A stretch of DNA of 64,000 bases from an uncultured delta proteobacterium (GTDB lineage Bacteria > Myxococcota_A > Polyangia > Polyangiales > Polyangiaceae), in assembly GCA_963696385.1 (NCBI GenBank), contig CAVOKF010000001.1:128001-192000 (forward strand), given 5' to 3'. A model generated the notes under the pieces. That model searched no databases, had not been told where the DNA came from, and worked only from the letters and a program-made list of their open reading frames with translations. The position numbers and the translations under genes are program-made. Below, in pieces: positions 3,337-17,254 of the stretch (position 1 is the first letter of the stretch; each line of letters starts with the position of its first letter).

Positions 3337-6300
3337 TCACTTGGTGGAGTGGTCTTTCCCGGCTTCTTTTTCGGCCCCGTGCTTCTTGTCCCACTCCTGA
3401 ACTGTGCGCACGTCCTCGCGCCCTAGCTCCTCGTAGAGTTCGTGGACGCGCTCGACGAGCGCCGGCGTGGCTTCGGGCTTCGGCTCGGCCTTGCCCTCAG
3501 GCTTCGGCTCCGCCTTGCCATCGGGCTTCGGCTGCGGCGTGGTTTCGGGCTTCGGCTCGGCCTTGCCCTCAGGCTTCGGCTCCGGCGTGGTTTCGGACTT
3601 CGGCTCCGGCGTGGCTTCGGGCTTCGGCTCGGCCTTGCCCTCGGACTTCGGCTCCGGCGTGGCTTCGGGCTTCGGCTCGGCCTTGCCCTCGGGCTTCGGC
3701 TCGGCCTTGCCCTCGGACTTCGGATCGGCCTTGCCCTCGGACTTCGGCTCGGCCTTGCCCTCGGACTTCGGCTCCGGCGTGGCTTCGGGCTTCGGCTCGG
3801 CCTTGCCCTCGGGCTTCGGCTCGGCCTTGCCCTCGGGCTTCGGCTCGGCCTTGCCCTCGGGCTTCGGCTCGGCCTTGCCCTCGGACTTCGGATCGGCCTT
3901 GCCCTTCGTGGCAGCCTTTTTGTCAATTCCGTCGAGAACCCAGTACGCCGCCAGCTTCACGCGGTCGTTGACCAGGGCCCAGAGGAGGGCGTAGGCCCAC
4001 ACGAATCCGGCCCAGCGCCAGCCGAGCGGTGTCATGAACAGCCCGTACACCGCGATCAGCGTCGCCACTGCCTGCGTGCCCAGCACCGCAATCCACAGAA
4101 TGCGCGCGGGGCGTATGGACCAGAATGGGCCACGTGTTCGCGTGAGGAAGATGGTCAGGTGCCCCGCGACCGACAGCTTCAGGTACATCAGCGTCTGGAT
4201 GTGCGCTCGGTCCAGATGAAACACGCGCTCGCCGAGATAGAAGAGGCCAAACGCGGCCGTCACTCCGGCGACGCCCAGCACCGTTGCGATGCCGAGCACC
4301 GAGCGCATGTTCCACGCCTCGGGCTGATCCTTGTAGTGGACGTTGTCGTAGGCAATCGAGAGGATGGCGCCGTCGTTGAGCAACGCCAGCATCACGATCA
4401 TCACGGCCGTCACCGGGAAGAAGTTGAAGACCAGGATCGCCAGCGTCATGAACAGCAGCACCCGCAGCGTCTCGGCGATGCGGTAGATCGCGTAGCTGTT
4501 CATCCGCTGGAAGATCCTGCGGCTCTCCTTGATCGCGTCGATGATGACCGACAGACCGGGCGTCATCAGAACGATGGCCGCCGCCGCGCGCGCCGCATCC
4601 GTCGCGCCCGACACGGCGATGCCGCAGTCGGCCTTCTTCAGCGCGGGGGCGTCGTTGACTCCGTCGCCCGTCATACCGACGATGTGCCCGCGTTTCTGGA
4701 GGACATCGACGATGTGAAACTTGTGCTCGGGAAACACCTGCGCAAAGCCATCGGCTTTCTCGATGGTATCCGCGACCTCCCGGGTCTCCTGCCGCTTGAC
4801 GTCCCCCAGGTCGCCCGCAGCAAGGATGTTGTCACCCATTCCGAGCTTCTTCGCGGTCTCCTTGGCGATGGCCAGCTGATCGCCGGTCACCATCTTGACC
4901 TTTACGCCCATCTGGCTGGCGGTCGCGATCGTGGCCTTGGCATCTTCACGCGGCGGATCGAACAGCGGTAATATGCCGAGAAACTGCCACTTTCCGTCGT
5001 CGTCGGCCCGCGCGACGCCGAGCGACCGAAAGCCGCGCCCGGCGAACTCGGCGATTGCTTTGACGACGGTCGGCTTCACCGCATCCGCATTCGCCGAGAG
5101 GTCCAAGATGACCTGAGGTGCGCCCTTCGTCGCTTTGAACGTCTTGCCGTCCTTCGTCTTGACGGTGGCCTCGGTGCGCTTGTGCACGGGGTCGAAGGGC
5201 TGGAAGTGGTCCACGTGGTAGCCCTGCAGCGTCTTGTCGCCGTCCTTCAGGCCTCCGAGGACGGCCAGGTCGATGGTATCGTTGTTGTCGGCGCGCGACG
5301 CCAGGGCGGCCGCGAGGATGACCTGTGCGGCGGGAACAGCGTTCACGCAGAACGGGTCGCCCAGCGTCAGCTTGTTCTGGGTCAGCGTTCCGGTCTTGTC
5401 GGCGCACAGCACGTCGACGCCCGCGAGCTCCTCGATGGCCACCAGGCGGCTTACGATCGCCTGCTTCTTGGCGAGAAGCCGGGCGCCGACCGCCATCGTG
5501 ACCGACAGCACGGTCGGCATCGCCACGGGAATCGCGGCCACGGTCAACACCAGGGCGAACTGCAACGTGGTGAGGATGCGGTCGCCCCGAAAGATGGCGA
5601 AGGCGACGATCACGGCGACCAGCGCCACCGCGAGAATGATCAGGTAGTTGCCGATCTTCAGGACCGCGCGTTGAAAGTGACTGACGGTGTGAGCCCCTTG
5701 CACCAGCTGCGCGGTCTTGCCGAAGTACGTCTTGTCGCCCGTGGCATAGACCAGCGCGCCGATCTCGCCCTGGCGGATGATGGACCCCGAGAACACCGCA
5801 TCGCCCGCCCCGCGCTCGGCAGGTAGGGACTCACCGGTCAAGGCCGACTGATCCACCTCGACCGGGTCCCCCGCCAGCAGCCGCGCGTCCGCCGGCACGA
5901 TGTCCCCCAGGCGCATGCGTATCACGTCGCCGGGGACCAGCTCTCGCGCCGGAGGATTGACCCACTTGCCGTCCCGCTTCACCCTGGCTTTGATGGCCAG
6001 CTTGGCCTTCAGGGCGGCAATCGCGTCGCCGGCCTGCCGCTCCTCCCAGAATCCGACCACGGCATTGGCGCAGAGCAGAAGGAGAATGATGCCGAAGTCC
6101 GGCCAGTGGCGGGCGACCGCCGACAGGACCACGGCCGCCTCGATCATCCAGGGAATGGGACCCCAAAAATACGTCAGAAACTTCAGCAGCGGATTGATCT
6201 TCTTCGTCTCGATCTCGTTGGGCCCGTACTGGGCCAGCCTTTTTTGAGCCTCCGCCTGACTGAGCCCCTCCTGCGACGATCCCAGCTTGGTCTGGAGCTC

Positions 6301-6393
6301 CGGCATGGGCATGGTCTTCAGGGCGTTCTGGGCATCGGGCGCAGAGCCAGTTTGCGACTTCGGGGCCTTCTGCTGAGCCGAAGAGGGGGCCAC
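3337..6393 (-). CDS. Proton-efflux P-type ATPase (P3A-like) with repetitive C-terminal tail
   Basis: [68 protein letters not shown] start 1 nt after the upstream gene's stop; alternative ATG near 6312. Confidence 0.93.
3463..3906 (-). repeat. Coding 24-bp tandem repeat, about 18.5 units (EGKAEPKP / EATPEPKS variants)
   Basis: Units such as GGGCTTCGGCTCGGCCTTGCCCTC are directly visible; counted in the ATPase translation. Confidence 0.95.
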
Positions 6394-6394
6394 G

Positions 6395-15056: not shown

Positions 15057-15324
15057 GGTCCGCCCTCTGTCTTACCAGCACCATGCGCTGACGCGCCGCT
15101 CGTAACGGATTGCTCGTGGCGGACGCATGCGTCGAGCTTCCCGAGCGATAGCCGATCCATCCGCGCACCAGGCTCGGACAGGTCGTCTCCGCCGTGAGCC
15201 GCGAGGGTGGCCGAGGATGCAGAGGGACAAGAGGCCGCGCAAGCCAGGCGCTCACGAGTTCGACCGGAATGGAAACCTGTTTCACCCGGGACTACGGTGG
15301 GCGCCGATCGCGCATGAGCTCACG

Positions 15325-17254
15325 ATGACGGTGCCTGGAAACGGCGAAGTGCCAGCTCGTTCTGCGGGTCTGCGGCCGTTGAGAGGAATCGTGACCCGGG
15401 CGGTCGATTCGAGCGAGCCACTCCGGTGGCCTCCAACTGCTCGGGCGTACGCTCCTGACCGCGGCGCTCGTGGGGGTCGCGGCCGGCTTGGTCGGATCCT
15501 TCTTCTATGCCGGTGTCGAAATCGTCGAACGGATCGTCCTGGAGCGCTGGTGCGGATACGTCCCGCTGCGCGCCGCAGGTGAGCCGGTCGCGCGAGCGAC
15601 CGCCGAAGCTCCGTTTCGGGGCTGGCTCGTCTGGTTGGTGCCCGCCGTCGGCGCCCTTGGGGCCGGCCTCATCACTCGGTTGGCGCCGGAGGCGCGGGGC
15701 GGCGGCGCGGACGCCATCATCGAGGCCTTTCACTCGCACCGCGGACTCGTCCGGCGGCGCGTTCCGCTCGTCAAAGCCGTCGCGTCGATTCTAACCCTCG
15801 GATTCGGTGGATCCGGCGGTCGCGAAGGGCCGACGATGCAAATGGGCGGCGGCATCGGATCGGTGATTGGCCAATATCTTCGCGCAACCGATCGTGAGCG
15901 GCGCGTTTTGCTCGTGGCGGGGACCGCGGCGGGCATGGCTGCCGTGTTCCGAACGCCGCTCGGCGCGGCCTTGCTCGCGGTCGAAGTGCTGCACCGGGAC
16001 GATTTCGAGGCCGAAGCGCTCGTCCCGTCGGTTTTGGCCAGTGTGGTCGCCTACTCGGTCTTCATTTCCATTTTTGGCGAGTCGACGCTATTCGTACACG
16101 CTGCCAAGTACCCGTTCGTTCCGCAGCACCTGCCGCTCTATGCGCTACTCGCCGTCCTCGTCTCGGCCATTGCGGCGATGTTCCTGGTCGTGCTGCGCAC
16201 GACGCAGGCGTACACCGCAAGGGTGCGGATCGCCGATTGGGCGAAGCCCGCCCTGGGTGGGCTTCTTCTCGGCGCAGCGGCCGTGCCGGTGATCCTCTTC
16301 GTAGGTCGGCAACTCGGGCGCGACGGAATGGGACTCGGAATTCTGGGCGGCGGCTACGGCGCAGCCCAACTGGCGATCACAGGAGCCCCTTGGTTTCCGG
16401 GCGGCTGGCGCGCCGTGGAGCTCCTGGTCCTACTCGGCTTCGCCAAGATCTTTGCGACTGCGCTTACCGTGGGAACCGGCGGAAGCGCCGGGGACTTCGG
16501 TCCATCGCTCGTCATCGGCGGCATCTTCGGGGGAGCGTTTGGTCGAGCGGCCCAACTGTTGCTTCATGACCCGCGAATCGATCCCGGCGCATTTGCGCTC
16601 GTCGGGATGGGAACATTCTACGGGGGACTGGCCCATGTCCCCATCGCATCTCTCGTCATGGTGTGCGAACTCACAGGCAGTTACGACCTGCTCGTGCCGC
16701 TGATGCTGGCCAACGGGGTGAGCTTCATCGCGCTCCGCAATCGCTCGCTTTACCACGCGCAGCCGGCGACGCGCCGGGACTCGCCTGCGCATCGCGGCGA
16801 GCTCATTCTCGACGTCCTGCGCGACATACGTGTCGGCGACGTCTTGGTGAAGGGGCGCCCGTACGCGGTCTTCCAGGCCACTGCTCCTGCCACCGAGGTC
16901 ATTCACGAAGTAGCCGGTGCACAATGGCAAGACGTCTTTCCGGTGATCTCGTCGAACGGAGCGGTCGTCGGAGTGATCACGAGCGACATCCTCCGCACGA
17001 TTGTACAAGAACCGAGCATTGCCGAATGGGCGATCGCGCACGACATGATGCTGGCTCCAGTCATCGTGCACGACAGCGCCGATGTGAGCAGCGCGCTCGA
17101 AATTTTGCTCTCGCACAGCGCCCGAGAAGTCGTGGTCGTGGACGACGATGGACACATCGTCGGCTTTCTCGACGAAGCCGAGATCTCGCGCCTGCACCAT
17201 CGATCGACACACGCCATCGACCTGTCCGACCGATCCGTCACGGGGGCCCCCTAA
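15325..17254 (+). CDS. CLC chloride channel/transporter with CBS domains, copy 2 (probable frameshift near 15425)
   Basis: GGGAD, GREGP, FRTPLG, AGDFGP, SLY, CBS pair. The CLC frame has a stop at 15392 and no ATG/GTG/TTG before 15470; an ATG at 15325 lies in a neighbouring frame. Confidence 0.85.

Follow-up and report, generated by a model that had tools for sequence, protein, structure and literature searches.

Nine genes within 14 kb (positions 3337 to 17254) of a 64,000-nucleotide stretch of Polyangiaceae DNA had been read in a preliminary description as a multi-layer acid-resistance island, built around a P3A-type H+-ATPase (in the following, the pump), a tandem HdeA lipoprotein, CLC anion transporters and an MprF-like enzyme. 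On balance, we favour another view: the 14 kb are a shuffled slice of a stress region of about 120 kb, in which the pump likely expels protons during anoxic fermentation of glycogen and which acid genes join piecemeal. This view builds on gene identities, pump residues, neighbourhood counts, an enrichment of sigma-54-like sites and occurrence in peat, all of which were observed directly. The whole stretch, called the window, is G000:C1:128001-192000, where genome G000 comprises 6.94 Mb in 8 contigs and is 96%-complete. Genes were called with our own codon model and identified by Pfam and NCBIfam profiles. These confirm all nine named genes and their approximate positions; the list had omitted a small membrane gene directly upstream of the pump. 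The respective features are:

3337..6393, minus strand: P3A (plasma-membrane type) H+-ATPase; TIGR01647, 1063 bits vs. a cut-off of 615
6395..6664, minus strand: small membrane protein of unassigned family; opens the likely transcript of the pump
7115..7540, plus strand: DoxX/SURF4 family membrane protein; PF07681, E 1e-8; the start may be 7070
7944..8474, plus strand: YflT-domain general stress membrane protein; PF11181, E 7e-8
8478..8594, plus strand: relic of a universal stress protein (USP) gene that retains its last 30 codons; PF00582 positions 111-141 of 141, E 4e-4, below cut-off
8743..10311, plus strand: lipase maturation factor (LMF1) family membrane protein; PF06762, PF25179
10747..11643, plus strand: tandem HdeA (gene hdeA2), predicted lipoprotein of 298 amino acids (aa); two PF06411 stretches; NF007576, 106 bits vs. 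a cut-off of 85
11700..13550, minus strand: CLC1, CLC-family anion transporter with CBS domain; GHGVP, GREGP, EV at the E202/E203 position, Tyr kept
13629..15056, minus strand: stand-alone aminoacyl-phosphatidylglycerol (PG) synthase-like protein (MprF/LpiA C-terminal domain, DUF2156); PF09924, E 9e-22, 78 vs. 27.5 bits
15325..17254, plus strand: CLC2, CLC-family anion transporter with CBS domain; GGGAD, GREGP, EV

The pump and its neighbours across phyla

The identification of the pump as a P3A H+-ATPase holds, based on its TIGR01647 score and on the key residues of the plant pump AHA2. AHA2 (5KSD) is the best solved-structure match (E 9e-211), and the respective alignment keeps the equivalents of N106 (CANA), the M4 PxAMP stretch, DKTGT, R655 (TLRV) and D684 (LLNDG); numbering and roles in proton transfer follow the available text of PMC10654040. 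The pump starts with GTG one base past the point where the small upstream gene stops (an ATG at 6312 is an alternative) and ends in a C-terminal tail of about 200 aa (window 3337-3900), i.e., about 190 aa of KPE(G/A)(K/T)(A/P)EP-like repeats plus an end segment of about 40 aa. A related tail motif is found once or twice in the tails of 16/56 relatives, others being almost tailless; the tail is a candidate bacterial regulatory domain. The end of the tail resembles DUF2934 by eye, but its last 47 aa are without Pfam hit and the assignment was rejected.

To identify pump neighbourhoods, we scanned GTDB genomes, where more than 630 stretches matched. The best-scoring 68 loci (71-87% identical) were kept and their genes counted up to 10 kb per side. 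These loci come from Bacteroidota, Verrucomicrobiota, Actinomycetota, Chloroflexota, Acidobacteriota, Spirochaetota, Planctomycetota, Nitrospirota, Proteobacteria, Chlamydiales and others. Most frequent among the pump's neighbours are phosphoketolase (Xfp, 31/68), PPK2 and the acetate kinase AckA (18/68 each), GlgP and SpoIIAA-like proteins (12/68 each) and class I aldolase (11/68), followed by PRC (9), USP and SPFH (8 each), CLC (6) and YflT (2). At least one of Xfp, AckA and PPK2 is found at 44/68 loci, and any of 13 carbon genes at 49/68. For comparison, the chance expectation for a random stretch of equal size in G000 is about 0.6% for xfp and about 1% for CLC. As steady partners of the pump we thus find genes for glycogen metabolism, phosphoketolase, acetate kinase and PPK2, a link that the preliminary description does not draw. 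With regard to the proposed acid genes, none of HdeA, MprF-like, LMF or DoxX lies within 10 kb of the pump at any of the 68 loci, and an HdeA profile search of these loci was also empty. The nine genes are therefore no co-conserved unit.

Similar results are observed within the class, where 14/401 genomes (G000 included) hold a pump orthologue. Besides G000, xfp is present in 98/400 class genomes, i.e., in 12/13 pump-bearing genomes vs. 86/387 others, where 7 of these 13 come from one family and are thus kin rather than independent cases, for which reason Fisher test values overstate the contrast; in 7/13 it lies at most 10 kb from the pump. The pumps of the genus genomes G004, G005, G007 and G012 lie among xfp, aldolase, glgP, PPK2, USP, YflT, PRC and the small membrane gene. 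Close pump relatives accompanied by xfp, aldolase or PPK2 are also found in a Chlamydiales genome, in Ca. Accumulibacter aalborgensis and in a Melainabacteria genome (L154, L144, L169), and very distant phyla thus share the module. Several pump hosts (Ca. Accumulibacter, Smithellaceae, Desulfobulbales) we take to live anaerobically, or to use glycogen/polyphosphate under anaerobic conditions, at sites that are not acid.

The small membrane protein is without hit in Pfam and NCBIfam searches and matches unnamed Atlas clusters with Myxococcota as commonest taxon. Its homologues lie within about 12 kb of the pump in G004, G005, G007 and G012 and near only 1/68 pumps of other phyla. A second, divergent P3A-like ATPase is encoded on contig C5 of G000 (L239:6825-9170; 36% identical; TIGR01647 596 bits, just below cut-off), and the class it resembles is widespread in the genus.

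HdeA, CLC and MprF-like genes

In the tandem HdeA protein, a signal peptide with Cys20 is followed by a helical domain of the sll1863 type (about residues 43-143) and then by two HdeA domains, which contain one cysteine pair each (Cys154-Cys202, Cys234-Cys282). All five cysteines are invariant in 28/28 aligned sequences (27 of 87 relatives plus the query), and the protein is predicted to be lipid-anchored. The 87 relatives stem from a protein search over lengths 163-522; 34 of them cover at least 84% of the query, and most others are forms of 165-225 aa that match about the tandem half (two are named from Nitrosomonas). One relative of 518 aa (P0011) joins an HdeA lipoprotein with PF17761/PF06250 domains, possibly a gene-calling fusion. 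A structure model of the full protein reaches pLDDT 77 and pTM 0.52 vs. pLDDT 83 and pTM 0.77 for the tandem part alone; the latter model suggests that the two HdeA domains pack on each other. The top Foldseek hits are E. coli HdeA structures (1BG8, 1DJ8) at a probability of 1.0 and E about 0.01, where TM over the target is 0.75-0.79; no hit falls below E 0.001. The protein thus shows the HdeA fold, at weak fold E-values, and the conserved disulfides; it is no small soluble single-domain periplasmic protein. A literature search, with most subscription journals and all supplements outside its scope, found nothing on tandem or lipoprotein HdeA. With most subscription journals again outside, no publication was found that combines HdeA, acid tolerance or peat, P-type ATPase and chloride channel, and the term proton-efflux P-type ATPase is absent from the publications found. 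For Acidithiobacillus, the available texts hold annotation-level mentions only (PMC1874648, PMC9449456).

HdeA genes are rare, i.e., found in 3/401 class genomes and 2/31 genus genomes (the genus tallies for HdeA, MprF-like, CLC and LMF genes include G010 and G042, both marked unpublished, neither of which carries an individual claim). In the window, HdeA and pump are 4.4 kb apart, and in G012 hdeA2 directly follows the pump at about 400 bases. Given that HdeA occurs in 3/401 and the pump in 14/401 class genomes, their proximity in the window is not random. Among 79 metagenome HdeA loci, which reduce to 64 distinct ones when near-identical loci are merged, P3A genes are found in 9, YflT in 11 and CLC in 4 (one of the latter near-identical to the window itself). 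Restricted to the 19 loci with at least 7 kb, the respective numbers are 5, 7 and 3. The P3A genes near HdeA fall in several P3A subfamilies; of five divergent ATPases tested there, four exceed the TIGR01647 cut-off, the other being a fragment. The link is one-sided, i.e., HdeA tends towards pump clusters while most pump clusters are without HdeA.

Both CLC proteins belong to the CLC family, but the proposed role as an E. coli-type shunt is not borne out at the level of subfamily. Both fail the ClcA equivalog test (231 and 158 bits vs. cut-off 350); they keep the gating glutamate E148 and the central tyrosine Y445, while S107 is replaced and Val stands in place of the inner proton glutamate E203 (residue roles as generally described for CLC proteins). 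CLC1 orthologues are found in 17/401 class genomes (16/400 besides G000), i.e., in 5/13 pump-bearing genomes vs. 11/387 others, and on the contig of the pump in 1. CLC2 has a 69% paralogue on contig C7 and accompanies a kinase/regulator/OmpA block in G005. Its true start lies near 15325, and the assembled open frame begins at 15470: compared to four relatives there is one extra base near 15408, which one RNA contig lacks. This extra base is an assembly slip or a strain difference. CLC genes are present in 31/31 and LMF-family genes in 29/31 genus genomes. Since both families are common in the genus, their presence says little.

For the MprF-like enzyme, the catalytic C-terminal domain stood the test, whereas the flippase domain is absent from the same chain, which has a short C-terminal membrane part. 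The best solved match is the LpiA domain 6LV0 (E 6e-13), with the D-x-x-R, LGxAPL and YxxxGLxxFK stretches kept. Of the full-length MprF profile NF033480 only positions 522-825 are matched (52.6 vs. 600 bits). Five flippase-type PF03706 genes are located on other contigs of the genome; a tRNA-synt_2_TM domain was not found in it. MprF-like genes are present in 15/31 genus genomes and lie within about 2 kb of a CLC gene in 5 (G000 included), where several of the remaining loci of these 15 are on short contigs. Among the 18 pump-bearing genomes, 11 have an MprF-like gene, in 1 within 50 kb of the pump. Contig C6 of G012 combines a broken pump copy, CLC1, CLC2 and an MprF-like gene inside 40 kb.

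LMF and DoxX are local insertions, i.e., passengers to be dropped from the proposed acid set. Neither is found near any of the 68 pump or 79 HdeA loci. DoxX is encoded in 6/18 pump-bearing genomes, never close to the pump, and the best matches of the window's LMF in the 30 other genus genomes are just 33-38% identical, like its own paralogue on C7. The USP relic has an intact counterpart in G007, where a USP gene adjoins the YflT gene. The full nine-gene set is in none of the loci retrieved. What does recur are sub-pairs (HdeA with P3A, MprF-like with CLC) and mixed loci in which acid genes sit inside a fermentation cluster: hdeA2-P3A-fba-xfp-small gene-tpi-CLC1 (L049), yflT-MprF-like-hdeA2-USP-P3A fragment-fba (L041) and a further one on contig C143 of G325.

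The supposed absence of decarboxylases is true of the stretch but not of the genome, which holds a pyruvoyl arginine decarboxylase and a urease. The neighbours of both genes suggest polyamine and nitrogen roles. A Chlamydia-like arginine decarboxylase-antiporter system was considered and rejected, since the permease three genes away scores BcaP-like (502 bits) and reaches only 42 bits for AdiC. Searches of the 96%-complete genome found neither decarboxylases of the GadA/B type (PF00282) and the AdiA/CadA type (PF01276) nor an arginine deiminase.

The larger region, its promoters and its habitat

The 14 kb have no clear borders, in contrast to the island proposed before: their G+C content is 0.61-0.67 compared to 0.65-0.67 for the contigs, and similar gene kinds continue about 40 kb upstream and 65 kb downstream. 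Within the 14 kb, order is shuffled, gene orientation is mixed (four directions) and there is no shared operon. In G000, pgm-glgP-xfp-fba (class I aldolase) lie 33-44 kb upstream of the pump, a CBS protein is also encoded on that side, and ppk2, glgP, tal/pgi, tpi, gnd and zwf follow 47-73 kb downstream. A recent foreign island was rejected by composition, i.e., G+C content and its value at third codon positions (GC3) are inside the range of the genome; the GC3 of hdeA2 (0.72) marks the 5th percentile, that of the pump (0.87) exceeds the 95th. Signs of a fluid region are the USP relic, an hdeA fragment in G044 and a frameshifted pump copy in G012. Further features of the window are:

1199..3256, plus strand: GlgX-like glycogen debranching enzyme (Pfam/NCBIfam), convergent with the pump and outside the 14 kb
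18601..21419, plus strand: sensor kinase and sigma-54-dependent response regulator (profiles), conserved beside CLC2 and a pump in G005
25915..37646, plus strand: further stress genes, i.e., KGG-repeat protein, six-BON protein, USP and second YflT (profiles)
53461..63764, strand unassigned: PPK2, glycogen phosphorylase, PRC-barrel and SPFH genes (profiles), usual pump neighbours in other genomes

The glgX gene also adjoins the pumps of G007 and G012; beside it, a weak YceI-like protein is encoded in the window (179-850; PF04264 below cut-off). The sensor kinase and sigma-54 regulator are part of a block (17527-24774) that further encodes a coiled-coil membrane protein of unassigned family, a single receiver, an OmpA lipoprotein and a MotA/MotB-like pair, the scores of which for Zorya ZorA/ZorB are weak and stay far under cut-off. 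This block is kept together with CLC2 in G005. The stress genes enclose an operon of MoxR AAA+/DUF58/vWA (BatA-BatD-like) genes at 28399-36212, and three OmpA/Pal-like proteins (22458-22979, 37872-38441, 50166-50573) have similar genes in the stress regions of relatives. Transposase genes of several types (integrase-core, DDE_3, IS66, DDE_Tnp_1) are found at 48779-49911, 54471-55585 and L037:985-5206, which marks the region as plastic; a DruA-domain protein adjoins the IS66 element (L037:108-983). Between xfp and the pump lie caa3-type oxidase, Rieske/cytochrome b and multiheme cytochrome genes (L036:2247-16107, i.e., 110-124 kb of C1 in G000), and a multiheme set resembling them sits after the pump cluster in G007.

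We scanned for sigma-54-like promoters using the common -24/-12 consensus (at least 9/12 letters, 30-140 bases before the start; genes with an upstream gap below 60 bases excluded). Respective sites are found for 6/9 genes of the 14 kb and for 18/73 genes in C1:88-212 kb, compared to 209/3732 elsewhere and 4/73 in an antisense control. Of 126 genome windows, the two with the highest density of such sites overlap the region of about 120 kb. Sites within the 14 kb include:

6713..6728, minus strand: 9/12, upstream of the small gene and the pump
7012..7027, plus strand: 10/12, upstream of doxX
7883..7898, plus strand: 9/12, upstream of the YflT gene
10678..10693, plus strand: 10/12, upstream of the tandem hdeA

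A match 259 bases before LMF was discounted, as it lies inside the USP relic. Outside the 14 kb, the BON and second YflT genes (25915..37646) are also preceded by such sites. The hdeA2 site is conserved in six distinct full-length relatives (L038, L039/L033, L041, L042, L043, L045/L046), with 10-11/12 letters at 70-114 bases upstream, and 14/53 HdeA-family upstream sequences reach at least 9/12 letters vs. 4 in antisense. The kinase/regulator pair is a candidate activator of these promoters.

With regard to habitat, we identified 14 sequencing runs that contain at least half of the words sampled from 3900-11700. Seven DNA runs from seven studies are labelled peat, with labels that carry no pH. 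Four soil runs belong to a single study, 'metagenome' is the only label of two DNA runs and one RNA run, and one run has no label. Some of the studies may belong to a single campaign, and the genome itself may stem from one of the runs. Runs X18-X24 have small or no word shares and were left out of this tally. The DNA thus recurs in peat metagenomes. RNA contigs of four runs cover 25, 26, 26 and 20 of 30 bins; they may include DNA, and neither level, strand nor co-transcription is readable from them. One RNA contig of X15 spans hdeA2 (10727-11719) without difference. Those of X16 and X17 skip 7859-8428, i.e., the larger part of yflT, and 7 bases close to the pump start are missing from them, which, as seen in RNA contigs only, hints at decay in a sister strain.

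Competing explanations and known systems

Several observations speak against the view that the pump serves anoxic fermentation within a low-oxygen region. The 68 loci were the best-scoring ones rather than a random draw, and 19 of them are without any of the 13 carbon genes, some through short flanks. In G000 itself, the pump is not adjacent to xfp (34 kb apart), and both acetate kinase genes are on other contigs than the pump. The substrate of prokaryotic P3A pumps is given as undetermined in the available text of a 2023 review (PMC10654040). Among relatives, sigma-54-like sites are not conserved before YflT (0/19), MprF-like (0/12), the small gene (0/8), CLC1 (1/13) and xfp (2/39). An FNR-type control scan with the common consensus (at least 8/10 letters) found no enrichment (7/73 vs. 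434/3734), and the DNA therefore does not name oxygen as the signal. Finally, peat is anoxic and often acidic, so the habitat does not separate the readings.

It is possible, though we give it limited weight, that the region is an integration hotspot where unrelated stress genes gather without functional coupling, and that an acid theme was read into common genes. Insertion sequence elements and relics in the region fit this, as do sister strains that appear to lose yflT and break the pump, LMF and DoxX genes that are unlinked everywhere else, a CLC2 gene that moves with the kinase/regulator block, and CLC and LMF families that are near-universal in the genus. However, a hotspot does not account for a link of the pump to xfp/ackA/ppk2 that holds over many phyla, for an HdeA-P3A link that recurs with different pump subfamilies, or for the strong enrichment of sigma-54-like sites. 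A dedicated multi-layer defence against external acid, in which pump, CLC shunt, aminoacyl-PG synthase and HdeA are co-selected and induced at low pH, we consider unlikely. It would explain why HdeA is near P3A in 9/64 distinct loci (5/19 of the longer ones) and after the pump in G012, why CLC1 is found in both other HdeA-bearing class genomes vs. 16/400 overall, and why MprF-like genes stand beside CLC in 5/15 genus genomes and within the 40-kb cluster of G012. It is also consistent with over half of the words being found in peat-labelled DNA runs of 7 studies and with the Rhizobium tropici lpiA gene and sycA(CLC)-olsC cluster, which are tied to acid tolerance in the available text of PMC5936775. 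Yet none of the 68 pumps has HdeA or MprF-like genes nearby and 6 have a CLC gene, an MprF-like gene at most 50 kb from the pump is seen in only 1/18 pump-bearing genomes, order is not fixed, no operon is shared and both CLCs miss the ClcA cut-off with Val for E203; the R. tropici CLC genes are, according to the same text, not acid-induced. As a nine-gene acid island, the finding is weaker than proposed.

Returning to the slice of a larger stress region, its genes can be arranged into a scheme. When respiration stops in waterlogged peat, GlgX, GlgP and PGM would free sugar phosphate from glycogen. ATP would come from phosphoketolase and acetate kinase as well as from PPK2 using polyphosphate, and the pump would spend it on H+ export, so that the pH of the cytoplasm and the membrane potential are maintained independently of respiratory pumps. 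CLC may relieve the charge by letting anions pass, and envelope proteins in the acidified periplasm may be shielded by the double HdeA. Here, we infer proton transport, induction by low oxygen or acid, and all functional coupling. A further-reaching version of this scheme appears doubtful to us: a plant-type P3A pump fed by glycogen/phosphoketolase ATP would be a widely transferred, decarboxylase-independent pH-homeostasis module of fermenting, oxygen-starved bacteria. Peat myxobacteria would extend it by a CLC anion shunt, a stand-alone aminoacyl-PG synthase and a single-chain HdeA pseudo-dimer tethered to the membrane, with all of these in one sigma-54 stress regulon. If true, this would provide the first physiological role for bacterial P3A pumps and a natural covalent HdeA dimer, the halves of which are unable to diffuse apart.

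Among known systems, the region is best read as a mobile, low-oxygen survival region like the Burkholderia lxa locus, a large co-regulated region that aids anoxic survival of an aerobe (PMC3721108; this and the following statements on lxa refer to its available text). In both, several USPs are found together with acetate kinase, genes of storage-polymer metabolism and a cation-transporting ATPase, and both are strain-variable, shuffled in other genomes and of host-like G+C. Compared by gene content, the region thus is a strain-variable cluster of USP, fermentation, storage-polymer and cation ATPase genes of the lxa/DosR kind. They differ in the storage polymer, which is polyhydroxyalkanoate in lxa and glycogen with phosphoketolase here, and in the ATPase, which is P3A here. 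The motif of lxa is FNR/Anr-like (TGA-N6-TCA), whereas the enrichment here concerns sigma-54-like and not FNR-like sites. HdeA, CLC and MprF-like genes are part of the region here, and none is mentioned for lxa.

The combination of an MprF-like synthase with a CLC gene is shared with the R. tropici lpiA-atvA and sycA-olsC loci, both acid-tolerance-linked there according to the available text of PMC5936775. There, LpiA is a full MprF with flippase and AtvA as partner, whereas the synthase domain stands alone and beside CLC genes here. The acid resistance systems AR2-AR4 of E. coli, which use ClcA/ClcB as shunt, likewise have CLC-family and HdeA genes. In contrast to them, no GadA/B or AdiA/CadA-type decarboxylases were found in G000, protons would be exported and not consumed, and the CLCs here fall into subfamilies that carry a CBS domain and lack S107 and E203.

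In E. coli, HdeA forms a soluble, non-covalent dimer, which becomes active after acid-driven dissociation. The tandem protein shares the fold of HdeA/HdeB and a disulfide pair per domain; unlike E. coli HdeA, it has two domains per chain, a helical sll1863-type domain, a predicted lipid anchor, a sigma-54-like promoter and a non-enteric host. It thereby offers a natural experiment on whether HdeA must split into free monomers to work. Within the whole region, this predicted lipid-anchored pseudo-dimer in a single chain stands out most. The pump, finally, belongs to the same TIGR01647 family as the plant and fungal P3A pumps AHA2 and Pma1 and keeps N106, R655, D684 and the phosphorylated Asp. 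It differs from both in being a bacterial pump that is 71-87% identical over phyla, fermentation-linked and in some cases equipped with a repeat-rich tail with a short conserved end motif. Prokaryotic P3A pumps are described as mainly archaeal and without C-terminal extensions in the available text of PMC10654040; the bacterial pumps collected here are near-identical across many phyla, linked to fermentation and, in some, extended by a conserved tail.

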